Sequence record: PZ212788.1
DNA from: a phage
DNA: 64,000 nt
Reading direction: 5' to 3' (one strand)
Position numbers and translations under genes: made by a program. This document shows, piece by piece, positions 8,120 through 30,785 of the stretch; position 1 is the first letter of the stretch, and each line of letters opens with the position of its first letter. The notes below the pieces were generated by a model. That model was not told where the DNA came from, made no database searches, and saw only the letters and a program-made list of their open reading frames with translations.

Positions 8120-8470
8120 TCAGTAGATGTTTTGTTTAATCTCTATTCCAAACTTCTTGAATGAGTCAGCAGCAAGCATAAATTTACGAGCTGCCGATGG
8201 ATTAGAAGTATGCACGAAAATAATCACGTTGTCAATAAGTGGTGGCTTTCCGAATACAAGTTTCTCCTCTAGCGCAGAGAAGCAGTCGTACCCTTCAAGC
8301 ACTTCACCTAGATCATTGTCAAAATGCCACTCAGAAACGCGCCTGTAGAGCTTTCTATTATCGTTAATAAAATCCATGAACTCAGAAGAGTTCTTCAGCC
8401 AAAGAGCATCTTGGATTCCGTAATTTGACGGATCTCTCAAGTCATCTAGCCACACAATCAACTTCTTCAT
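8120..8470 (-). CDS. REC/flavodoxin-like small protein, translationally coupled to RNA ligase
   Basis: ATGA start/stop overlap with RNA ligase; KLIVWLDD, HFDNDLG, IFVHTSNP resemble receiver-like fold; function inferred from context. Confidence 0.4.
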   Translation of the reverse strand: MKKLIVWLDDLRDPSNYGIQDALWLKNSSEFMDFINDNRKLYRRVSEWHFDNDLGEVLEGYDCFSALEEKLVFGKPPLIDNVIIFVHTSNPSAARKFMLAADSFKKFGIEIKQNIY

Positions 8471-9402
8471 TGCATATAGTCCTCGTTGTGAAAATAGCAA
8501 TCAAGTATCTCACGGCGTTCCTGCTCCAGGAGGCAGTTCCACACATCTTCTGTGTAATTGCTACGAATGAAGTTTACCATGCCATAAAACTCTTCGTCAA
8601 TACGTTTAAAGATATCATCATCCCAAATCTTCCAAGCTTTACCCCTCATTACGGCCTTCCGTGCCAAATAGTATGGAGACTTGATCTTCAGCTGCAGGTC
8701 ATAAGGGTAGTAAGGCTTACGGATCATATACCCTTCGCCCCTTGTTTCTGCAGCTAATTCTTTTGCATAGCTGAACGGGATTTCACGCACAGTGTGAGGA
8801 CGTTTTGCACCAAGGTATTTGGCAATCCCATCTAAAGCTGCTTCTGGTAGCATTATTCCAGAATCATTATATCTGCAACCTATCAAATATGCGCCATGGT
8901 CTTCTTGAACAATATGCGGATCTGAAGGGTGACAAATTTCAAACATGAATGTCATGTTTTCATTGCCCATAACCTTCTTGATAAGATCTAAATTACCACA
9001 TTGCTCTTGGATGGTTTCCTTTGCAAGGTTACAATATGGAGAATCAAGAGACCCGGTTGTTGAGAACAATAGGTCACCTTTATGAGATGATACCACACCA
9101 AGGAATCCGTTCTTTTTCTCTACCGCAGTCACAAGCTTATTGTCAGGCAGGTTGGTGGAGTTTTCTCCCAAGTTAAACACTTTTGTGAAGGGCCATGCCA
9201 CAACATTTCCTTCATTACCTACAACAATGCCTCGGCACTCCAGTAAACGAGGGGACAAATGCCATAAATTGTTGTAAAATACTTTTCTAGCATATTTATA
9301 GATCTTTAACCCGAGATCTGGGTAATACCTACTGGTTACAAGACCTTTATCAACTAGGTCGTCTGCATTAAAATACTTCATCATACGTTCCTCATTTGTC
9401 AT
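8467..9402 (-). CDS. rnlA: RNA ligase, T4 Rnl1 (RnlA)-like
   Basis: PRLLECRGIVVG and VFNLGEN align with T4 Rnl1 PDALECRGIMFE / FFNLNEN; nucleotidyltransferase motif I KKNGF, motif IV EGYMIRK, motif V LKIK. Confidence 0.75.
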   Translation of the reverse strand: MTNEERMMKYFNADDLVDKGLVTSRYYPDLGLKIYKYARKVFYNNLWHLSPRLLECRGIVVGNEGNVVAWPFTKVFNLGENSTNLPDNKLVTAVEKKNGFLGVVSSHKGDLLFSTTGSLDSPYCNLAKETIQEQCGNLDLIKKVMGNENMTFMFEICHPSDPHIVQEDHGAYLIGCRYNDSGIMLPEAALDGIAKYLGAKRPHTVREIPFSYAKELAAETRGEGYMIRKPYYPYDLQLKIKSPYYLARKAVMRGKAWKIWDDDIFKRIDEEFYGMVNFIRSNYTEDVWNCLLEQERREILDCYFHNEDYMQ

Positions 9403-9413
9403 TTTGTCAGTCT

Positions 9414-9442
9414 ATCCTGTCACACAAATAACCTAGTGTCAA
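9414..9442 (-). promoter_or_regulatory. candidate sigma70-like promoter for RNA ligase operon
   Basis: Minus-strand TTGACA-N17-CAGGAT; weak -10. Confidence 0.3.
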
Positions 9443-9445
9443 CAC

Positions 9446-9474
9446 TTGAAATTAACAAAACAGTTAGATATACT
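9446..9474 (+). promoter_or_regulatory. sigma70-like promoter TTGAAA-N17-TATACT
   Basis: Good -35/-10 with 17-nt spacer, back-to-back with minus promoter; lies upstream of GGGGG RBS and ATG 9503. Confidence 0.55.
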
Positions 9475-9502
9475 ATCGTTGAAATTAAAACGGGGGGTCA
9501 CT

Positions 9503-9913
9503 ATGTCTAAAATGCTATATATCGTGCGTGGTCTACCAGGGTCTGGCAAATCAACACTGGCAAATGCGCTATCTTTAGAGGGTCTGTATCCACATTTTGA
9601 GAACGACATGTTCTGGTATGACGATGACGGCAATTACAACTGGGATGCAAGTAAAGTAACACTCGCAGCGAAATGGTGCAAAGATAACGTAGAAGATATG
9701 ATGCGTATGGGATACGACCGTATCGTGGTAAGTAATACGTTTACAAAAGAAAAACATGTGCAGGAATATGTTGACATGGCAATCAGTCATGGGTATAGTT
9801 ATACCGTGATCGTGGTTGAAAACCGCCACGGTAATAAAAGCATTCATGATGTTCCAGACAAGGTTGTGGATCGTATGGAACGCCAGCTTAAAAACTGCAT
9901 TAAACTTAAATGA
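9503..9913 (+). CDS. P-loop polynucleotide kinase-like protein
   Basis: Walker A GLPGSGKST directly after start, size and layout like T4 Pnk kinase domain; start set at 9503 because ORF-track Met at 9446 lies upstream of the promoter -10. Confidence 0.6.
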   Translation: MSKMLYIVRGLPGSGKSTLANALSLEGLYPHFENDMFWYDDDGNYNWDASKVTLAAKWCKDNVEDMMRMGYDRIVVSNTFTKEKHVQEYVDMAISHGYSYTVIVVENRHGNKSIHDVPDKVVDRMERQLKNCIKLK

Positions 9914-9920
9914 GGAATGT

Positions 9921-10475
9921 ATGAAATACTTTGTAACAAGCGACACACACTTTCTCCACCAGCGGGTCATGGAGTTTGATTCATGTCAAAAACACAGATC
10001 TCAGTATGATCACAATCTTGACAGTATGAATGCGGGAATCATCGCCGAATGGAACTCTGTTGTGTCACCTGCAGACACTGTGTTCCACTTGGGAGATATT
10101 GCGTGCACTAATGATAAGAATATCAACAACTTACTTCCAGATATTCTAAATATGTTGAACGGACATATTATTCTTGTTCGTGGCAACCATGACACAAGGA
10201 CGACTGTCAGAATTATGAAAGAGTTCGGTCATGAGGTTGTAGATTATTACGAGCTTCGCCACAACAAGAATTTGATCTGTATGAGCCATTACCAATTTGC
10301 AAAGTGGAACAGAAAGCCTCACGGATCAGTCCAACTGTTCGGTCATGCTCACGGAACCACACAACAGTTGTTTGGCAGGCAGCTTGATGTCGGTTGGGAT
10401 GTGTGGGGGAGACTCTTACCATTAGAAGAGGCATACCGTATTGCAATGAGTTTTGCTATTGACAGCGGGGAGTAA
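9921..10475 (+). CDS. calcineurin-like metallophosphoesterase (candidate polynucleotide 3'-phosphatase)
   Basis: Motifs SDTHF, HLGDI, RGNHD, GHAH; GAGG RBS; start 9921 eight nt after kinase stop. Confidence 0.6.
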   Translation: MKYFVTSDTHFLHQRVMEFDSCQKHRSQYDHNLDSMNAGIIAEWNSVVSPADTVFHLGDIACTNDKNINNLLPDILNMLNGHIILVRGNHDTRTTVRIMKEFGHEVVDYYELRHNKNLICMSHYQFAKWNRKPHGSVQLFGHAHGTTQQLFGRQLDVGWDVWGRLLPLEEAYRIAMSFAIDSGE

Positions 10476-10522
10476 TCCCTGCTATTTTAAAGAAAATTGC
10501 CACACAAGGAGAATCAGGAGAT

Positions 10523-10873
10523 ATGAAAGATGGGGATAAGCTGCTATATCTTAAAGTCCCCCTTGAAATACTGTCTATGTCAAAAGTTTTGAATGACACA
10601 ACTGGAGAGGTTGTTGTTCTTGACTTGTATGACAAGATCGTATACTGCTACCTGCACAACTGGTATAAGCTTGGAGGAAATTCACGCTTCACACCCAGCA
10701 CAAGGAAAATTGCAGCAGATGTTGGGATAAAGAAAACAAAAGCAGCAGCGTGCGTTAAAACTTTAGAGTGTGCAGGGGTGGTTGAAACATCCACACAAGG
10801 GAGAGGTAAAAGATGCACATTTTCCAAAGTTTTGCCACCAGAAGAAGTTATTCGGATGTCAACAACTGGTTAG
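10523..10873 (+). CDS. winged-helix/HTH DNA-binding protein (candidate iteron-binding protein)
   Basis: HTH-like segment STRKIAADVGIKKTKAAACVKTLECAGVVE; gene directly precedes iteron array. Confidence 0.4.
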   Translation: MKDGDKLLYLKVPLEILSMSKVLNDTTGEVVVLDLYDKIVYCYLHNWYKLGGNSRFTPSTRKIAADVGIKKTKAAACVKTLECAGVVETSTQGRGKRCTFSKVLPPEEVIRMSTTG

Positions 10874-10947
10874 ACCAGTAAAAACTTAAATATCTGTACT
10901 ATAAGGATTCGTATGTTTTATGTTCGCTCTAGAATAGAGGTCAGTAA

Positions 10948-11030
10948 CTGTCCGTGATACGGACACTACTGTCCGTCACGCGGACACATCTGCCCGTAAT
11001 ACGGACACTAACTGTCCGTGATACGGACAC
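10948..11030. repeat. iteron array: four direct copies of 19-bp palindromic site CTGTCCGTGATACGGACAC at 21-22 bp spacing
   Basis: Copies at 10948-10966, 10969-10987, 10990-11008, 11012-11030; copies 1 and 4 identical; each has TGTCCG/CGGACA arms around a 5-nt spacer. Confidence 0.8.
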
Positions 11031-11534
11031 ATAAAGAATATAACTAAAATAACTAAATAATAAAAAATAAAAGATCTAGTACTTATGGTACTAAAGTACA
11101 TATACTTAACTTATGTAGAATATACTAGATCCTAAGTACCATGTTTTAAATTTATTACTTACTATAGGTAGTGTCGGCCCTTCATTGGCACTCGCCTACG
11201 AGGGGCGAGATGCCGGGCCTCCATAGTGCACACAATAACAGAAGTGCATACATGCAGGTCTGTTAACATGTGTGGGAGCGAAGCGATAGCGCAGGCCAAA
11301 GGCCGAGCACTAATGTGGACCACCGACGAAAGCTTGCCAGCGCCGTAAGGAGTCGGTTGAGAGCCTCCCGCGCGAGTTTGGATAAAGTTTATGTGTGGAA
11401 ACTGACAAGAAGGCCCCTAAATCGCTCCACAGCTATATAAACTATACCAAGTAAGGCAATCGCACCAGTTTGATAGAAAAGCTCGTTACAAAGCGATACA
11501 GTGAGTTTTTCTATAACTTGAAGAGGAGTCTGCT

Positions 11535-12113
11535 ATGAGTTCACGCAAAGATGCCAGTGAAAAGATTGCAAAACGTTATCAGAATGAAGAACAGATGGAG
11601 AAAACTTTCAAGTGGAAGCCAGGTTTCCAGCGTAATCATTCTAACGCTCGTGATCGTAAGCATCCTGATAAGTGGCTAACACCGCCAAATGATGGCATGC
11701 AGGTTGGTGATGAGAAGGAGCTATCACCTGGAAAAGATGGCAACTACATTCGCACTAAGGACGCTAGTCCAAAGGATGACAGCTATCTTGTAGATAAGGT
11801 TCTTAATGGTATTGATGTAGATGTTGACACTACACGGAACTTTTTTCTTGGGTGGTATCGCACAGGTTTTTTCGACATCAAGGCCATTCGTCGTGTTTGT
11901 GATATTAAAAAGTCTGCATATGATGACGACTCGTTACATCGCACACTGAGACAATATTCAGAAAGATATGGTCATCCGGTTATCACTCTTGACGATGTTA
12001 ACGAAGTGATGTATCATGCAGAGGTTGTTGCAGGCAGATTTGGTGATGCATATCTTGATATCCTTTCTGCAAACGATGAGGTAATGTTGAATAAGATTTA
12101 CTACGAACGTTGA
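11535..12113 (+). CDS. hypothetical protein
   Basis: ORF with GAGGAG RBS. Confidence 0.45.
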   Translation: MSSRKDASEKIAKRYQNEEQMEKTFKWKPGFQRNHSNARDRKHPDKWLTPPNDGMQVGDEKELSPGKDGNYIRTKDASPKDDSYLVDKVLNGIDVDVDTTRNFFLGWYRTGFFDIKAIRRVCDIKKSAYDDDSLHRTLRQYSERYGHPVITLDDVNEVMYHAEVVAGRFGDAYLDILSANDEVMLNKIYYER

Positions 12114-12123
12114 GGAGAGCTTA

Positions 12124-12312
12124 ATGAACAATCCGGTAGCAAAGAATTGTAATAAGTTCAACAAGTCTGCAATTCACACTGACAGGAAAAAGAGCTGGTC
12201 ACCGGACATTGACGAGGAGCTTGAGAATTACTTTGAAGATCTGGTTACCAATGCAGGTGAGGTTGCGATTAAAGAATACGCAGACAGGAGGGATAAGGCC
12301 GGAATCTGTTGA
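12124..12312 (+). CDS. hypothetical small protein
   Basis: ORF with GAGGAG RBS. Confidence 0.35.
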   Translation: MNNPVAKNCNKFNKSAIHTDRKKSWSPDIDEELENYFEDLVTNAGEVAIKEYADRRDKAGIC

Positions 12313-12337
12313 CAAAAATAATGTTACCTGATAAGAT
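12309..12337 (+). promoter_or_regulatory. sigma70-like promoter TTGACA-N17-TAAGAT
   Basis: Consensus -35, 17-nt spacer. Confidence 0.45.
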
Positions 12338-12388
12338 CTGCAATATGATGTGATACAATTTTAACTTACGAGGTCTACAGGTAATGCT

Positions 12389-12631
12389 ATGTTTAAGGTT
12401 AAGCTCGTTTTCCGTTCCATGAATGAGGATTATTTAGAAGATGAAGGTGAATTTCGTGCACTAGATGATGCAATAGATTTTGCCAACGACTTAGCTTGTA
12501 TGAATACGGGTTATGGGTTATGCTGTTGGGATGGTGGTGTTCAGATCGGTGATAGCAAGATCTTCTACTTCTACCCTGAGCCTGATAACAAACAAATTAA
12601 GTATGTTTTATTTATTTGTGCTTTACAATGA
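12389..12631 (+). CDS. hypothetical protein
   Basis: ORF downstream of promoter 12309-12337. Confidence 0.4.
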   Translation: MFKVKLVFRSMNEDYLEDEGEFRALDDAIDFANDLACMNTGYGLCCWDGGVQIGDSKIFYFYPEPDNKQIKYVLFICALQ

Positions 12632-12919
12632 GGTTGTTTTCGTGTATCATGATGAATATCCAATTTAAAGATGAGTTTGATGGCTTTATCTCCGGATGCT
12701 TTGAAACAGGGTTCGGAGAAGGCTGAGTTCCCCTTAGAGGGCTTGATAGTGCACCACACTTAAAATGGTAGGGGCAGCCAGCACATGACGATGTGACCCC
12801 AGCCAACCTGTAATAAGGTCGAGCCAGAGCGCGGTAATGGGTATCTGGTAACCCACTTGTTGGGTCTTGCTGGTCCAGGACGCTGGGCAAGTCGCAGGGA
12901 ATACCACCCTGCGGCGAAC

Positions 12920-12948
12920 TTGACAATCAGTATTTGCCGTGATAAAAT
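12920..12948 (+). promoter_or_regulatory. sigma70-like promoter TTGACA-N17-TAAAAT with extended -10 (TGa)
   Basis: Consensus -35, 17-nt spacer, TG at -15/-14. Confidence 0.5.
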
Positions 12949-12965
12949 CCACCTATCACGTGATA
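12938..12965. promoter_or_regulatory. operator-like palindrome: CGTGATA half-site plus perfect 12-bp palindrome TATCACGTGATA
   Basis: Overlaps the -10 and extends toward the RBS of CDS 12977; GTGATA core also present in the iterons. Confidence 0.45.
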
Positions 12966-12976
12966 ATGGAGGAAAC

Positions 12977-13315
12977 ATGGCGGATACAACTAAAAAGCGT
13001 CGCCGTAGAGGCAGACCTCTGAAAGAGGAGTCCAACGCCATTCAGCTAGAGAAGAACATTCTTGATATGAAGGAATCTTTTATAGCGATGGTTCCAGAAG
13101 CTCACAAAGTTTTAAGAGAGCTGATGTTGGACCCGAAAACCAAACAAAATATTCGTCAAAGCATTGCAGAGTATGTTCTTGATAAGGCAGACCGAATGCA
13201 GGAAGAATATGATGAGATGTTTGGTGAAGAGGAAGAGGTGGTAGTGGAAGAGGCTGAAAAACCAGCACCTTTTATGCCATTTACCACAGAAATACAGCCT
13301 GTTGGCAATAGTTAA
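12977..13315 (+). CDS. hypothetical protein with basic N-terminus (KKRRRRGRP) and acidic C-terminus
   Basis: GGAGG RBS 4 nt upstream of ATG 12977; ORF-track Met at 12857 lies upstream of promoter. Confidence 0.4.
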   Translation: MADTTKKRRRRGRPLKEESNAIQLEKNILDMKESFIAMVPEAHKVLRELMLDPKTKQNIRQSIAEYVLDKADRMQEEYDEMFGEEEEVVVEEAEKPAPFMPFTTEIQPVGNS

Positions 13316-13411: not shown

Positions 13412-13486
13412 GCCCTGTTAGCTTAGTGGATAAAGCAGCGGCCTTCTAAGCCGTTGACACTGGTTCGAGTCCAGTACGGGGTGCCA
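13412..13486 (+). tRNA. tRNA-Arg (anticodon TCT)
   Basis: Hand-folded cloverleaf: acceptor GCCCTGT/ACGGGGT, D arm GCTT/AAGC, anticodon stem GCGGC/GCCGT with loop CTTCTAA, T arm ACTGG-TTCGAGT-CCAGT, discriminator G, encoded CCA. Confidence 0.8.
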
Positions 13487-13490
13487 AATT

Positions 13491-13577
13491 GGGGAGTTAT
13501 CCCGTAGGGGTAGCGGTGTAGACTGTAAATCTATTGTCATTGCGACTCGGGTGGTTCGACTCCACCACTCCCCACCA
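13491..13577 (+). tRNA. tRNA-Tyr (anticodon GTA), type II
   Basis: Acceptor GGGGAGT/ACTCCCC, anticodon loop CTGTAAA, long variable arm, T arm GGTGG-TTCGACT-CCACC, CCA encoded. Confidence 0.8.
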
Positions 13578-13692
13578 AATTTATAGTTTTAAATGCATAA
13601 ATCATACAGATAATGGCATTGATATTTATCGTCGTTTATACTAGTCACTAACTGCTCGAAAATCAGTGTCATTATCAGTATTGTTTATAAAT

Positions 13693-13778
13693 GAGGGTAG
13701 GGAGCAATGGTGCTCAAGCGGTCTTGAAAACCGTCCCGTTGAGGATGACTTGATGATGGTTCGATTCCATTACCCTCA
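13693..13778 (+). tRNA. tRNA-Ser (anticodon TGA), type II
   Basis: Acceptor GAGGGTA/TACCCTC, anticodon stem GCGGT/ACCGT with loop CTTGAAA, long variable arm, T arm ATGG-TTCGATT-CCAT. Confidence 0.75.
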
Positions 13779-13879
13779 GCCATATTGTTGACCTTGTAAT
13801 TAATCGAAAGCCGGAAGCAGAACCGGATTATCAAATGTTACAGTCGTCATCGCCGACTAGCAACATGGTCAACATACTG

Positions 13880-13976
13880 AGCTAGGTAAGCCCTTTGGCA
13901 AGGGCGAGGATTTTTAATCCTGAAAATAGACGAGGTAGTCGTTGAATACATAGGTGGTTCGATTCCATCACCTAGC
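13880..13976 (+). tRNA. atypical tRNA-like element (97 nt), anticodon hairpin presenting TTT (Lys-like), with about 30-nt variable-region insertion
   Basis: Acceptor GCTAGGT/ACCTAGC, D arm GCCC-TTTGGCAA-GGGC, hairpin AGGA-TTTTTAA-TCCT, T arm GGTGG-TTCGATT-CCATC; too long for canonical tRNA. Confidence 0.4.
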
Positions 13977-13985
13977 ACCTTTTTT

Positions 13986-14061
13986 GCTGATGTAGCACAA
14001 TTGGTAGTGCAATTGATTTGTAATCAATAGGTTGCAGGTTCAAGTCCTGCCATCAGCACCA
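13986..14061 (+). tRNA. tRNA-Thr (anticodon TGT)
   Basis: Acceptor GCTGATG/CATCAGC, D arm GCAC-AATTGGTA-GTGC, anticodon stem ATTGA/TCAAT with loop TTTGTAA, T arm GCAGG-TTCAAGT-CCTGC, CCA encoded. Confidence 0.8.
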
Positions 14062-14062
14062 T

Positions 14063-14137
14063 GGCCCTGTAGCTGGAAGGTTCAAGCAAGCGACTCATAA
14101 TCGCCAGACGGTGGTTCAATTCCACCCAGGGCCACCA
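14063..14137 (+). tRNA. tRNA-Met or tRNA-Ile2 (anticodon CAT)
   Basis: Acceptor GGCCCTG/CAGGGCC, anticodon loop CTCATAA, T arm GTGG-TTCAATT-CCAC, CCA encoded. Confidence 0.7.
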
Positions 14138-14148
14138 AATAATAAATA

Positions 14149-14225
14149 CTCCGCGTAGCTCAGCTTGGTAGAGCGCCTGATTTGGGATCAGGAGGTCGAG
14201 TGTTCGAATCACTCCGTGGAGACCA
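14149..14225 (+). tRNA. tRNA-Pro (anticodon TGG)
   Basis: Acceptor CTCCGCG/CGTGGAG, D arm GCTC-AGCTTGGTA-GAGC, anticodon stem CCTGA/TCAGG with loop TTTGGGA, T arm GAGTG-TTCGAAT-CACTC, CCA encoded. Confidence 0.8.
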
Positions 14226-23124: not shown

Positions 23125-23583
23125 ATGCTAAAGGTTAAATGTCAAACAAGGTTCAACCTAAAGCGTTTAGATCGCTTCTACAAAGAACTTGTGAGACTTG
23201 AAAGCAAAACAATAACCTACGGCTTTTATGACGAACCTCACCCGTCAGGCTTAAATATGGCAACATTGGCAGCCATTCACAACTTCGGTTGGAACGGGCT
23301 GCCTGTTCGCAATTTCATGGAGACAGCCTTCGCATTTCACAGCACTCAACTACAGACCTTGACAGAAAAATTGTTGAGAGCTATGGCTAGAGGATCAAGT
23401 GCAGAGGCTATTCTTAAGCAGATGGGGGACACAGGGGCCAAAGCTATCCAGTTTGTTATTGAGGCTGGTCAATTTAGTAATCCTACTGTTAGTGAGCAGT
23501 GGGCACAAGAAAAGGGCTTCAACGAGGCTATGCGGCATTACGATGTGCTGCTTGAATCTGCAACCTTTAAAATCGGACAGTAA
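23125..23583 (+). CDS. hypothetical protein (head-tail joining region)
   Basis: GAGGGA RBS; position between head and tail modules. Confidence 0.35.
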   Translation: MLKVKCQTRFNLKRLDRFYKELVRLESKTITYGFYDEPHPSGLNMATLAAIHNFGWNGLPVRNFMETAFAFHSTQLQTLTEKLLRAMARGSSAEAILKQMGDTGAKAIQFVIEAGQFSNPTVSEQWAQEKGFNEAMRHYDVLLESATFKIGQ

Positions 23584-27459: not shown

Positions 27460-29796
27460 ATGGCTACAAACAAAATAGTTGCCACAACAGTCAACAAGAT
27501 TGGCTTTGAGATAGAGAACTCCTCCTACAAAAAAGCTGTAGAGAAAATTCGCAGTATTGGGAGGGAGTTCAGGAAACTGGGCGAAGATTTTAACTCAGCC
27601 AACCCCATGAGCAGATGGCAGGCGGTAGCTGTTAAAACCCAGCAGACAATGCAGCGGGTTGCCAGACAGCAATCTCAGGCAAATGCTAAGCTGCACAGGG
27701 AGAGCGTAGCACAGGCCAAGAAAGAGGCTGCAGTAAAGGCTGCAATAGAGCGTAGGGAGAATGCAAGACGTAGGCAAGCTGTAGGCAATCTTACCGCTAA
27801 AAATCCAGAAATGGCTAGGATGCGTAAGTTCTACCAGCAGCAAGCTAAAGAGGCCAAAAAGGCTGCCAAATCTGCACCAGTGTCTTACGGCGGTTATAAG
27901 GCACCTAAGGCAAGAGTTCTGGCTAATGCCAAAGCTTTCAAATATATCCCCGGTAACCCTAATATGGGTGGTGTGGCTTCCGACCCTAACCTTGTAAAAG
28001 CTCAGACAGCTGCTATGAATCGTTATCATAGACAGCTAAGAAGGGACGGTAAAGCTGGTATGGATAATAGACTTATGTCGGATCGTGAGGCAAGAAGAAC
28101 CCACCTCTACAACTCCGCGATAAGACTTTCTGCCAAGTATGGGGCCGGATTCCGTGGAAGCTTGCCAGGATACTCAGAGTTAGAGTCCAGGTTTGCTCGC
28201 GGGGAGATGAAAAAGTCAACCTTTAACGCCCACCTATCAGCGCTGCAGTCCGGATTTAAAAGTGCCACCAGCCAAACGCTTACACTAGGCGATGCCATGA
28301 GAGATTTACGTAGATCTGTTATTAATGCAACAGCTGCGTATACAGCTTTTTCTGGATTTGCTGCGGTTAACAGATCCGGTCACATGATGGAGGGGGCAAG
28401 TGCTGCTCTTACTGCTGTTACTGGAGATCCAAACAAAGCTAACAGTGAGGTTGCGTTTGTCCAGCAAGAGGCTATGCGTCTTGGTTTTGATCTCAAATCT
28501 GGTCTTCAAGGTTACGCCCAGATGTCGGTAAACGCCAAAAACCAGATGACAAATCAGGAAGTGCATGAGCTGTTTTCTGCATACTCCCAGTATGCTGCTG
28601 CTTATGGTGCCGATGAGGTAAAATACCAGCGCGGTATTATGGCAATCCAGCAAATGCTCGGTAAAGGGCAAGTAATGTCCGAAGAACTGAAGCAACAACT
28701 TGCTGAAGCATTGCCTGGTGCATACGAACCTTTTATCAAGGCCACCAAAGAGGCTTTTGGTCTTTCTGAACTCTCCATGGATCAGTTCATGGACATGATG
28801 AAGAAAGGTGAGGTTAAAACAGCCAAGATCATGAAGTATGTGGCTAAGTACATGAACGAGGCATCTGCAGCTGGTTATGAAAGAATGCAGAAGTCTAACG
28901 TGCTGGCAGAAAACAGACTGAAAACCTTCATCGAACTGACTCGTCAGAAACTGTTCACCCGTTGGTCTGACGAACTAACAGAGTTCTATTATACACTGAT
29001 CCGCACGGGTGAGACTCTGCAATTTGTGTGGGATGCCTCTGGTGATTTTGTTAGCGGGTTTGTGAGAGGCCTTAACTGGGTAGTTGGTGAACTAAACAAC
29101 ACTATAGTCAAGATCCGCATGTTTTTCCTTGAATGGGGGATTAAATGGGGGTTCATAACAGCCAAGACGAAGGAATATTCTGAAGAGCTTCATGACACCT
29201 TTAGCTATGCTAAATGGGCAGGGTTTGCTGCTGCCATCATGCTGGTCGTCAACGCCCTAACAAAAGGTTTTGTCATGGCATCTATGCTTGTAAAAACCTT
29301 TAAATTCCTTAACTCTCTAAGGGGTGCAGCTGGAGCAGCGGGTGCCGCTACTACAGAAGGATCTGGTGGTGGAGCTCCGGCAGGAAAAGGTGGAGGTGGC
29401 CTCAAGACACCTGGTGGCAAAGTTGGTCTGCTCGGTAAGCTGGGCATTATCGGTACAATACTAAGCGCCGGGGAATTATTTAATGACCGTTACAACCCAC
29501 TAAGTGAAAGAAATCAGCAGCTGGATACTATCAGCGATATGATTCGCAAAGATATCATATCGGGAGGTAACGGGTTTGTTAATCCTTTGGACACCTTACC
29601 GGGCGGGACTCTTCCGTTGCCGGGTGGCCCTGGTTTTGCTTCTCAATTAAGAACTATGGAAATGCTACCTTTAGAGATCAGTGATGGGAAAATCACGATT
29701 TCAATAGATGAGGGTGAGTTTAACAAAATATTTGATGCAAAACTTGAGTGGGAGAACAATAAAGATATCAACTTCATGTCTACCGACCTTTGGTAA
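27460..29796 (+). CDS. tail tape measure protein
   Basis: 778 aa, alpha-helical with Gly-rich segment, directly after chaperone pair. Confidence 0.7.
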   Translation: MATNKIVATTVNKIGFEIENSSYKKAVEKIRSIGREFRKLGEDFNSANPMSRWQAVAVKTQQTMQRVARQQSQANAKLHRESVAQAKKEAAVKAAIERRENARRRQAVGNLTAKNPEMARMRKFYQQQAKEAKKAAKSAPVSYGGYKAPKARVLANAKAFKYIPGNPNMGGVASDPNLVKAQTAAMNRYHRQLRRDGKAGMDNRLMSDREARRTHLYNSAIRLSAKYGAGFRGSLPGYSELESRFARGEMKKSTFNAHLSALQSGFKSATSQTLTLGDAMRDLRRSVINATAAYTAFSGFAAVNRSGHMMEGASAALTAVTGDPNKANSEVAFVQQEAMRLGFDLKSGLQGYAQMSVNAKNQMTNQEVHELFSAYSQYAAAYGADEVKYQRGIMAIQQMLGKGQVMSEELKQQLAEALPGAYEPFIKATKEAFGLSELSMDQFMDMMKKGEVKTAKIMKYVAKYMNEASAAGYERMQKSNVLAENRLKTFIELTRQKLFTRWSDELTEFYYTLIRTGETLQFVWDASGDFVSGFVRGLNWVVGELNNTIVKIRMFFLEWGIKWGFITAKTKEYSEELHDTFSYAKWAGFAAAIMLVVNALTKGFVMASMLVKTFKFLNSLRGAAGAAGAATTEGSGGGAPAGKGGGGLKTPGGKVGLLGKLGIIGTILSAGELFNDRYNPLSERNQQLDTISDMIRKDIISGGNGFVNPLDTLPGGTLPLPGGPGFASQLRTMEMLPLEISDGKITISIDEGEFNKIFDAKLEWENNKDINFMSTDLW

Positions 29797-29900: not shown

Positions 29901-30785
29901 ATGCCAAGCAATATAGTTGATGAAAAAGACCTGTACAAGCCTCAAGAGGTTAAATCTCCAAAGGCTGAAAAGGCAGAACAGCAAACTGAAAGCGATGTAA
30001 AGTACACTATGTTTGTCAGCGGTCTTAACTATGGTGGTCGCAATACGGAGATGAAGGGTAAAAACTTTACTAACGATCTTGCCATCATCTTCGATCAGGT
30101 TGAGAATTACTCTTTCAAACATTCTGTTGATAAGACTGGGTTTGCGGTGGAAGATAAATCTACCCTGTCAGACCACGCTGTAATTAAAGATGGTGTATTT
30201 TCTTTTACTGGTAGGGTAAATACATCACCACATATAATCTATGAGCAAAACTACATTGACAGGAATACTGACTCTAAAAACCCTGCAGCGTCTATGCGAC
30301 CAGGCGCTGCACTGGAGGCTTTGACTGAGATCATTAATAAGCGCCAGTTGGTTTCTTTGGTTACCGAGGAGAGACTCCTTGAGAACTACATCATAACCAG
30401 CCTTTCTGCCAACAAGTCTGTTGGTGAAGGTGCTGCGATGGTGTTTGATGTAGAACTTACAGAGTTCCGCACATTCTACTTGAACAAGGTTGTTAATGCA
30501 ACTGTATACAGCAACCCTAAGAAAGTAGGCAAGACCCAGCAAAAAGGTGCTGTCAACGACTGTAAGAATGGCAGTAACGTAGGTAACAAGAGGGACACAG
30601 GGGCATTTGCAGACACTGCATCCACAAATGCCGCAGAAGAGTGGCAGCCCTACAAATCTATGATGTGGACGGATGAAAACGGTGTTACTCAATCTGCTGC
30701 GGATTGGTATTATCAGGAATATGGAAGACCTTCTACCATAGTCCCATCTGAGCAGGGAAACTACAACAAAGTTAACGGAAAATAA
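29901..30785 (+). CDS. tail/baseplate protein (hypothetical)
   Basis: GGAGAGG RBS; position after tape measure. Confidence 0.35.
   Translation: MPSNIVDEKDLYKPQEVKSPKAEKAEQQTESDVKYTMFVSGLNYGGRNTEMKGKNFTNDLAIIFDQVENYSFKHSVDKTGFAVEDKSTLSDHAVIKDGVFSFTGRVNTSPHIIYEQNYIDRNTDSKNPAASMRPGAALEALTEIINKRQLVSLVTEERLLENYIITSLSANKSVGEGAAMVFDVELTEFRTFYLNKVVNATVYSNPKKVGKTQQKGAVNDCKNGSNVGNKRDTGAFADTASTNAAEEWQPYKSMMWTDENGVTQSAADWYYQEYGRPSTIVPSEQGNYNKVNGK

Follow-up and report, generated by a model that had tools for sequence, protein, structure and literature searches.

Initiation at the oriV origin of plasmid RSF1010 involves consecutive segments, with RepC iterons followed by a GC-rich and AT-rich segment and then by the single-strand initiation (ssi) signals ssiA and ssiB, which are used by the RepB' primase. 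In bacteriophage lambda four dyad-symmetric O iterons, located inside the O gene, precede an AT-rich region, and related phages swap initiator and iterons as a unit. Plasmid R1 carries a G-site that starts leading-strand synthesis a few hundred bp downstream of oriR, the region opened by its initiator, and the ssoA, ssoT, ssoU and ssoW signals of rolling-circle plasmids are non-coding, orientation-specific, folded stretches of 150-300 nt with short conserved unpaired motifs, from which synthesis on the displaced strand begins. Cis-acting sites may also be shared by satellite and helper, as is the case for cos of P4 and P2 and for pac or cos of phage-inducible chromosomal islands (PICI). In RSF1010 unwinding occurs at the initiator-bound iterons, the helicase exposes the ssiA and ssiB hairpins and the plasmid primase starts there (PMC8567376). 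Unusually stable DNA mini-hairpins are found at the primase start sites of G4, St-1 and alpha3 and also in RSF1010 ssiA, whose hairpin is capped by the mini-hairpin motif CCGAAGG (2026 review, PMC13037366). Here we describe a tract at 10874-11534 of a 64,000-nt stretch of phage DNA (sequence record PZ212788.1, referred to below as the window) in which four iterons, an extremely AT-rich segment and a GC-rich block with a covariation-supported fold follow one another. Judging from its sequence and from that of its relatives, the tract is quite likely to be the core of an iteron-type replication origin. The reading that we favor for the GC-rich block, with a probability that we place at roughly 0.4, is that it constitutes the generic single-strand module of this origin, most likely a priming or helicase-primase entry signal on the folded + strand.

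The window region is 100% identical to Escherichia phage vB_EcoM_10C2_SA_NWU and 92-99% identical to 119 rV5-like phages (genus Vequintavirus, genomes of ∼136 kb); whole-genome figures given below were taken from OR062525.1, an identical phage of 136 kb. An earlier note, written from the letters of the window alone, had pointed to the lack of any open reading frame (ORF) of 60 codons or more between 10873 and 11535, to an extremely AT-rich segment at 11037-11160 with partial palindromes and the appearance of a DNA-unwinding element, and to an unusually GC-rich block with many short complementary segments at 11161-11520, adjoining iterons, that was taken to be a structured non-coding RNA or a protein-binding scaffold. 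It proposed an Infernal scan against Rfam and folding with covariation analysis against homologous phage regions as checks, and held that a protein encoded at this place in homologous phages would speak against the idea. The description of the locus has stood up in every respect, as detailed in what follows, and it is in the interpretation of the block that revision is needed.

The 661 nt of the tract contain no ORF of at least 60 aa on either strand, which makes it the longest such gap in the window, ahead of one of 651 nt at the tRNA cluster; the largest ORFs inside it encode 56 aa (11270-11440, + strand) and 53 aa (11162-11323, - strand). At 19.4% GC, compared with 44.2% for the window, the AT-rich segment has the lowest content of any 124-nt piece (6 of ∼63,900 such pieces are equally low, all of them at this locus), and it is the GC minimum of the complete 136-kb genome as well, the next lowest value being 25%. 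The partial palindromes can be located precisely, with TAGTACTTATGGTACTAAAGTAC at 11077-11099 including a 5-bp inverted repeat, AGTAC/GTACT, and with a longer imperfect inverted repeat that pairs 11061-11085 with 11133-11157. There are GATC sites at 11073 and 11128, and GATCTTTTATTTT, on the - strand at 11064-11076, is a perfect fit to what we take to be the 13-mer consensus of oriC, GATCTnTTnTTTT. To the left of this segment lie four 17-bp dyads of the type TGTCCGTGATACGGACA (10949-10965, 10970-10986, 10991-11007 and 11013-11029), spaced by 21, 21 and 22 bp and forming both direct and inverted repeats; an iteron origin is expected to have at least three helically phased direct repeats.

An iteron origin should further have its initiator gene beside the repeats and an AT-rich unwinding element flanking them. 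The gene immediately upstream (10523-10873, + strand) encodes a 116-aa winged helix-turn-helix (HTH) protein, a candidate origin-binding initiator, that matches the PHROG family phrog_12838, 'replication initiation protein', with an E value of 5e-80, an assignment that is based on annotation and not on experiment; the Pfam HTH_36 score is 24.5 bits against a cut-off of 25, and that of DUF6945 is likewise slightly below threshold. The 19.4% GC segment flanks the repeats on the side of the GC-rich block, downstream of the initiator-like gene, and all of our findings fit its being a candidate DNA-unwinding element, a layout that recurs in three lineages. DnaA boxes, also looked for as a property of iteron origins, were absent from 10870-11180 (zero matches to TTWTNCACA); such boxes are not universal in phage origins. 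The minimum of the cumulative GC skew and a point of divergent transcription are found ∼1.5 kb from the tract.

The stretch 11161-11520 has a GC content of 50%, in the top 2% for this DNA, and the truly rich part is 11173-11380, which at 58.7% is the single highest 208-nt piece of the 64 kb. Folding of the single sequence gives z-scores of -2.5 to -2.9 relative to dinucleotide shuffles, on either strand and with either RNA or DNA parameters, values that are modest when taken alone. Evidence for structure is obtained instead from compensatory changes in the relatives described below, which establish that the complementary segments remarked upon in the earlier note do include real helices. These are clearest in a 66-nt core at 11310-11375 (+ strand), a three-way junction of four helices that is flanked by the conserved sequences UAAUGUGG and CUCCCGCGCG and that occurs once in the 136-kb genome. 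Among 13 distinct core sequences 97% of the alignment cells pair and 9 of the 16 pairs are altered on both sides, numbers that must be read with the understanding that the alignment was fitted to the model and that about three independent lineages contribute to it. None of 500 shuffles matched the observed covariation, sliding the partners by 1-3 columns left between 0 and 2 such pairs, and 5 pairs are still double-changed when a metagenomic contig, L015, is omitted, in which case the alignment is trivial. The core comprises a helix GGAC/GYCU, with a G.U pair that is invariant across all lineages, a helix CACCGAC/GUCGGU(U)G (also written CACCGAC/GUCGGUUG), a mini-hairpin GCU-UGCC-AGC that is replaced by AGC-GAA-GCU in L015, and a mini-hairpin CC-GNRA-GG with a loop of GUAA, GGAA or GGGA. 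At several pairs one-sided changes yield G.U, and not A.C, when read on the + strand, and it is therefore the + strand that folds; a choice of strand by consensus folding energy failed, with structure-conservation indices of 0.71 and 0.70.

The remainder of the block is modular. A 5' hairpin domain at 11173-11226 (+) is formed from a GGCCC/GGGCC stem around an 11-bp hairpin, GGCACUCGCC...GGGGCGAGAUGCC, with a bulged A, and all of its alignment cells (100%) are paired; in NZ_CP020521.1, the only one of the plasmid-like satellites discussed below to retain this domain, there are two double changes from G-C to U-A and zero broken pairs. It is followed at 11229-11275 (+) by a variable hairpin, CACACA..ACAG..UGCA-UACA-UGCA..CUGU..UGUGUG, which ends in the first of two TGTGTGG heptamers (11269-11275) and is dispensable, since 18 nt of it are missing in rV5 and Pr121LW. 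A cluster of small GC hairpins at 11276-11309 (+) contains the mini-hairpin motifs GCGAAGC and GCGATAGC and then GGCC-AAA-GGCC. Adjoining the core is a G.U-rich hairpin at 11368-11398 (+), CGCGCGAGUUUGG...UGUGUGG, with five G.U among its 12 pairs and the second heptamer at 11392-11398; several of the G.U pairs become G-C or U-A in other phages, including one double change, and in the satellites a GC-rich hairpin of variable length takes its place. The linker at 11399-11466 (+) is weakly conserved, 71% to the divergent relatives L003 and L016, with a motif, GGCCCCTAAATCGC, that recurs in the satellites. The last 68 nt, 11467-11534 (+), contain a 12-bp hairpin, AUAGAAAAGCUC/GAGUUUUUCUAU, at 11473-11514 as well as the ribosome-binding site GAGGAG of the next gene, and are probably a leader or regulatory site of that gene, which encodes a 192-aa protein. 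A predicted closing helix, GUGUGGGAG/CUCCCGCGC, is plausible and is invariant in phages and satellites, and is absent in L015. The long-range helices suggested by RNAalifold (GUGU/CGCAC, GGCC/GGC, and GGGCCU at 11216-11221 with AGGCCC at 11411-11416) were dropped as there is no informative variation in them; for pairing of the GGGCCU/AGGCCC type, satellites that lack the 5' domain nevertheless keep the 3' motif, and the local GGCCC/GGGCC stem accounts for the 5' domain.

Conservation of the block can be gauged from two divergent relatives, L003, a contig from IMG/VR, and L016, a contig from Logan, in which the identity of the 192-aa protein is 82%. For the block core the figure is 86-87%, as compared to 66% for the third positions of codons in the adjoining gene, the 3' linker at 11381-11466 is at 71%, near the neutral level, and the 68 nt before the start codon are at 87-93%, so that by these comparisons the GC-rich block is under purifying selection. 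Sequence homology to L003 and L016 is lost beyond 10485 and returns exactly at 11173, the first nucleotide of the 5' domain. Between these two points the relatives have a different initiator-like protein, of 143 aa (phrog_8102), different repeats and another AT-rich stretch, and both the 116-aa and the 143-aa proteins match PHROG families named 'replication initiation protein'. Initiator and repeats have thus changed together, between identical flanks, and repeats of at least four types are found in the satellites. The swap and the PHROG matches together suggest that initiator, iterons and AT tract are one exchangeable specificity cassette, with the GC-rich block as conserved backbone. Further relatives were scarce. 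In IMG/VR there was one divergent relative (scans with 16-mers and 19-mers gave chance matches and the same contig), a 19-mer scan of metagenomes gave four close Vequintavirus contigs and ten chance matches, and a gapped pattern of the core was absent from IMG/VR and, among species genomes, gave 16 matches in GC-rich metagenome-assembled genomes that are put down to chance.

The block is not confined to Vequintavirus. A sensitive blastn search of complete E. coli genomes gave partial matches of 83-85% in circular plasmids of 13.2-13.7 kb and, in addition, in a 39.6-kb plasmid with three copies of the match. We examined six of the plasmid-like elements (L042-L047, of which L043 is NZ_CP020521.1, 13,689 bp). 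In each the homologue of the block is located in unannotated DNA, in the same orientation, directly after the plasmid's own iterons, of at least four different types overall, and an AT-rich segment with GATC. An HTH protein of ∼300 aa is encoded downstream, and the 303-aa satellite protein has a weak match to PHROG 'replication initiation O-like', a family of initiators that resemble lambda O. The plasmids encode major capsid, baseplate and tape-measure proteins, three of their genes have 38-54% protein identity to the window genes at 30030-30587, 23212-23553 and 27802-28755, and PLSDB types them as non-mobilizable; they have the appearance of Vequintavirus-related satellites or mini-phages, and we found no literature on them. 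Most are without the 5' domain, and the hairpin modules are reshuffled or replaced with pairing retained. Upstream of the block the satellites have >1.5 kb of DNA that is non-coding and contains no convincing promoter. In all of the satellites AATAGAT is present three times together with a C4TAAC4/G4AATG4 hairpin immediately before the block, and NZ_CP020521.1 has a second array, of three ∼27-bp repeats TATCAACATATCAATNTGATATAYTTA, between iterons and block (L041, 575-690).

A covariance model of the 66-nt core identified a third lineage, a metagenomic contig from an unrelated phage (L015/L065; 35 bits, E ∼2e-7), where the core directly follows a tract rich in AT or GATC that is itself preceded by 4-5 palindromic iterons, AAGGGCCAAATAATGGCCC; the origin region of L015 has no match in the phage collection. 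The position and orientation of the block, on the + strand after iterons and AT tract, are thus fixed in three lineages, as would be expected of an ssi. The downstream genes are different in each, encoding the 192-aa protein in Vequintaviruses, small proteins and the HTH protein in the satellites and an HNH endonuclease in L015/L065, and in the satellites and L015 there are sigma-70-like promoters between the block and these genes. The sole constant neighbor of the block is therefore the unit of iterons and AT tract.

In the sequence of events that we favor the 116-aa HTH protein would bind to the four dyad iterons at 10949-11029 and melt the adjacent 19%-GC tract (11037-11160), and 11173 to ∼11400 would then be exposed as single-stranded DNA (ssDNA) by a replicative helicase that travels 5' to 3', rightward, along the + strand. 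Since such a helicase leaves the AT tract rightward on the + strand, the + strand of the block would be the lagging-strand template that is exposed first; it would fold into fixed hairpins that serve as an entry or priming site for the phage primase-helicase or the host primase, and from the first primer made there DNA synthesis would proceed back across the origin. Initiator, iterons and AT tract would form the exchangeable specificity cassette and the folded block the generic module, which would explain why relatives with another initiator keep the block and why the 13-kb satellites carry it beside iterons of their own. Origin activity, the order of events, the nature of the folding nucleic acid (ssDNA or RNA) and priming are what we infer here. 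The phage does encode its own primase/helicase and DNA polymerase. Strand-specific hairpins that are under selection, as an ssi should have, are indicated by the covariation and by the G.U pairs that place the fold on the + strand. Mini-hairpin motifs, defined as GCGNAGC or GCGNNAGC following PMC13037366, are modestly enriched, with 2-3 GC-closed motifs on the + strand and none on the - strand in phages; GCGAAGC, GCGNNAGC and CCGNNAGG are confined to the + strand in phages and in L015, and several satellites also have CCGAAGG or CCGTAGG on the - strand.

The likeness to RSF1010 oriV is considerable, in that iterons are followed by an AT-rich region for opening and then by hairpin single-strand signals for priming, in that the element brings its own helicase and primase and in that the origin can be divided into opening and priming modules. 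However, ssiA and ssiB are single hairpins of 40 nt on opposite strands, whereas here there is one multi-hairpin block of 230-300 nt, on one side and one strand; the small HTH initiator is unrelated to RepC and no sequence similarity was found. With the lambda origin the tract shares four inverted-repeat iterons about two helical turns apart, an AT-rich region directly after them and an HTH-type DNA-binding domain in the initiator, but lambda has no conserved GC-rich folded block beside its AT region and the 116-aa protein has no counterpart of the C-terminal domain of O that recruits P and DnaB. The primase sites of the G4 type (G4, St-1, alpha3) are sets of strand-specific hairpins, folded in ssDNA, with mini-hairpins of the GCGNNAGC type that direct primase (PMC13037366). 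The block is longer than these, has a three-way junction and shows no detectable sequence similarity to them, a search of the phage collection returning Vequintavirus records only. The sso signals, in turn, serve rolling-circle replicons by way of host RNA polymerase, unlike the block, whose partner is an iteron (theta-type) origin.

A number of observations weigh against a single-strand priming signal. At ∼230-300 nt and with its three-way junction the block is far larger than the 40-nt ssiA and ssiB of RSF1010 and, to our knowledge, more elaborate than other ssi signals, and blastn against PLSDB and the phage collection gave only the satellites and Vequintaviruses, with no similarity to any known plasmid or phage ssi; we therefore consider that the block works like, and is not a member of, the known ssi families. 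One satellite, L046, has a plain hairpin instead of the three-way junction, the strand asymmetry is weak by energy measures, and the cassette boundary at 11173 is equally compatible with a block that belongs to the downstream gene. In addition, several features are more typical of RNA, and it is possible, though short of probable, that the block acts as such, either as a structured segment of an early read-through transcript from the promoter at 10459 or as an RNA processed from it. As an RNA it could function in cis, as a leader, a processing or stability element or as protection of the 660-nt untranslated stretch from Rho for the sake of the downstream genes, at the origin, where like ColE1 RNA II or the origin transcripts of T4 and T7 it could provide a pre-primer or form an R-loop, or in trans, as a non-coding RNA common to helper and satellite. 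Supporting this close rival of the ssDNA signal are covariation that passes through G.U intermediates (A-U, G.U and G-C at one pair), the conserved G.U pairs including the invariant one, the wobbles of the five-G.U hairpin that become Watson-Crick pairs in some lineages, a GNRA tetraloop retained as GUAA, GGAA or GGGA in three lineages, two C(UUCG)G loops in satellites, an RNA folding z-score of -2.9 and conservation that runs from the block to the start codon. Transcription of the block by read-through is to be expected in any case because there is no terminator between 10873 and 11535 and in rV5 a single promoter is annotated for ORFs 79 to 76. On the other hand, the scan for sigma-70-like promoters and intrinsic terminators, which is blind to phage-specific promoters, found none on the + strand at 10489-11896, so that an independent RNA gene with defined ends is not apparent. 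The scan against Rfam (release 15) that the earlier note had proposed matched no family for the block even at E≤10: nothing reached the gathering score anywhere in the window, the one hit at E≤10 in 10800-13100 was rli43 (26 bits against a gathering score of 100), which covers mostly the iterons and AT tract, and there was nothing at E≤10 in the satellites and L015. The promoters located between block and genes in the satellites and L015 place the block outside those mRNAs, the >1.5 kb of non-coding DNA upstream in the satellites has no convincing promoter, and what remains constant beside the block in three lineages is the iteron and AT-tract unit and no gene. Further, loops of GAUA and GUCA do not fit GNRA and do fit the DNA consensus GCGNNAGC, and the covariation-supported junction is recovered by the minimum free energy fold with DNA parameters but not with RNA parameters. 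Folded transcripts that span an origin and set initiation, as in ColE1 (RNA II), T4 (oriF and oriG) and T7, would be the relevant models were the RNA interpretation true, yet initiator and iterons are missing from those origins and their promoter is a defined one, at a fixed distance; for the block no promoter was found.

Two other accounts deserve consideration. The block might work as double-stranded DNA, that is as a platform for proteins, for example a pac or helper-recognition site copied by satellites, a transcription-factor array or a helicase-loader site, with the TGTGTGG heptamers as recognition units. In favor of this are the occurrence of the block both in a phage and in plasmid-like elements whose tail genes are related to those of the helper, a situation reminiscent of the cos common to P4 and P2, a terminase gene ∼4 kb downstream, the inverted heptamer clusters on two sides of the origin together with the rank of TGTGTGG as the commonest satellite 7-mer, and long invariant stretches inside loops. 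We nonetheless regard it as unlikely, because nine pairs are double-changed with complementarity kept, as expected for a folded single strand, the hairpin modules of satellites are reshuffled with pairing kept and the third lineage has the fold with little primary sequence in common (35 bits). Of the two proposals in the earlier note the structured character of the first is supported, although the loop motifs and the constant place next to the unwinding element suit a folded ssDNA signal at least as well as an RNA, and a plain double-stranded scaffold is argued against by the very changes that establish the structure. A resemblance of GCCGGGCCUCCAUAG and ACAAGAAGGCCCCUAAAUC to what we presume to be the CR-I and CR-V regions of RNase P was also followed up, and RNase P RNA was rejected, as no model matched at E≤10, the pairings are nested and not pseudoknotted and most satellites lack the 5' domain. 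Finally, that the block encodes small proteins is very improbable. Some records do annotate ORFs of 31 and 56 aa in the tract, such as rV5 ORF78, so that homologous phages do, formally, encode a protein here, and a - strand frame of ∼84 codons (77-87 in most Vequintaviruses) is free of stops, with 18-nt and 3-nt deletions that are in frame. These ORFs do not, however, pass coding tests. The 60 variable columns in 11173-11416 are distributed over the codon phases as 23/19/18, and as 14/15/13 for the ORF78 frame, with no third-position excess in any frame, the ORF ends differ in L003, and the - strand frame has GTG as its only start, giving 53 aa, and is interrupted by stop codons in two phages, Aya and SYGMH1, and shifted in the Logan relative, which has a +1 insertion. 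By our own estimate a comparable stop-free run arises by chance in about 1/5 of such GC-rich stretches, and it is the helices, not any frame, that are kept in the satellites and L015. A priming signal on the folded + strand remains the reading that we prefer. A broader proposal, which we advance tentatively and with some doubt, is that the block represents an undescribed family of folded elements (RNA or ssDNA), an initiator-independent origin module of rV5-like phages present also in the ∼13-kb satellites, where it would be a handle into the helper primase-helicase or an RNA shared by helper and satellite.

The heptamer TGTGTGG, found twice in the block (11269 and 11392), is the commonest 7-mer of satellite L043, with 17 copies against 1.3 expected. 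On the - strand at 8400-10940 there are 5 copies, which puts it at the top of the 7-mers, tied with the overlapping TTGTGTG, while permutations matched in composition average 0.34. Around the origin, where the sites span 8450-11398, its direction at 7 of 8 sites is outward from the iterons and AT tract, on both sides, including positions antisense to + strand genes at 10357, 10500 and 10791. In L016 the orientation agrees at 8 of the 9 sites left of the origin, and L065 shows no polarity. A genome-wide replication polarity is unsupported; the inverted clusters are local. A phage protein may bind to these heptamers, or priming on lagging-strand templates may occur at them. A second inverted cluster (OR062525.1, 102836-107207) surrounds a 2.5-kb unannotated region at 103.5-106 kb with segments of 25% GC, which might be another origin or a control region.

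Among the surroundings of the tract, the only predicted + strand promoter upstream is a sigma-70-like one at 10459-10488 (TTGACA, 18-nt spacer, TATTTT) preceding the initiator-like gene; in the rV5 record the equivalent promoter is annotated as 'P76' and the next is found only past ORF76. To the left of the tract are an RNA ligase gene on the - strand and then genes for a kinase, a phosphoesterase and the 116-aa HTH protein, all on the + strand. To the right are the gene for the 192-aa protein of unknown function (11535-12113, +; phrog_12226), three small genes, a second GC-rich gene-free block and the tRNA cluster at 13412-14225. In searches of the phage collection the proteins flanking the tract were found in Vequintavirus only. 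The genes at 8467-10475, directly left of the origin, resemble an RNA-repair set, with an RNA ligase of the T4 Rnl1 type (-), a metallophosphoesterase and a P-loop kinase for which the annotation is polynucleotide kinase, and the tRNA cluster is 3 kb to the right, which suggests repair of tRNAs against anticodon nucleases. One tRNA-like gene, at 13881-13979, has a low score of 35.5 bits, an irregular anticodon loop and an insertion of ∼25 nt relative to the tRNA model; ARAGORN gives it a 4-base anticodon and one record lists it as tRNA-Lys. Proteins of the SIR2 family and with a cREC_REC domain are encoded beside the RNA ligase (L016, 934-2054; OR062525.1, 66783-67903), and counter-defence or NAD-related functions are possible for them.

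The second GC-rich ORF-free block, at 12655-12925, has 93.5% identity in L003 and L016, above that of the flanking genes, and an RNA folding z-score of -2.3. Sigma-70-like promoters are located before it (12622-12650) and at its end (12920-12948), and there is no match to it in Rfam. It is most likely a separate structured non-coding RNA. A 45-nt core at 12799-12843 (GTAATAAGGTCGAGCCAGAGCGCGGTAATGGGTA...) has 88-95% identity to unannotated DNA between genes of >700 T4-like phages (L064, 1505-1550), in KIT03 for example between an internal-protein gene and vs.8, and it has no match in E. coli genomes. This core appears to be a short non-coding element common to unrelated coliphage families.

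A 2013 paper on an rV5-like genome used skew analysis to look for the origin, without result (PMC3606486), and our literature searches found no description of the element, or of a Vequintavirus origin, non-coding RNA, transcriptome or satellites. The anatomy of the origin is in part familiar, a variant of an opening module combined with a single-strand signal. What is unusual is the large covariation-supported folded module that is common to a lytic phage and to plasmid-like satellites. As with P4/P2 and the PICI, a short stretch of non-coding DNA is shared between a large phage and a small element that has a replication initiator of its own, although the shared piece is here a folded one beside a replication origin and not a terminase site, and the relation of helper and satellite is itself a putative one. 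The replication origin of the rV5-like phages, which are widely used in therapy cocktails and are represented in the BASEL collection, has not been located so far, and the tract provides a precise candidate, one that divides into an exchangeable initiator and iteron cassette and a conserved folded module. The presence of the block in small E. coli plasmids whose capsid, baseplate and tape-measure proteins are related to those of the phage suggests that a family of satellites has so far gone unrecognised and offers a concrete cis element by which they may exploit their helper. If the block is a priming signal in ssDNA, none of those known would come close to it in elaboration, and if it acts as an RNA it would represent a new class of origin-linked RNA.

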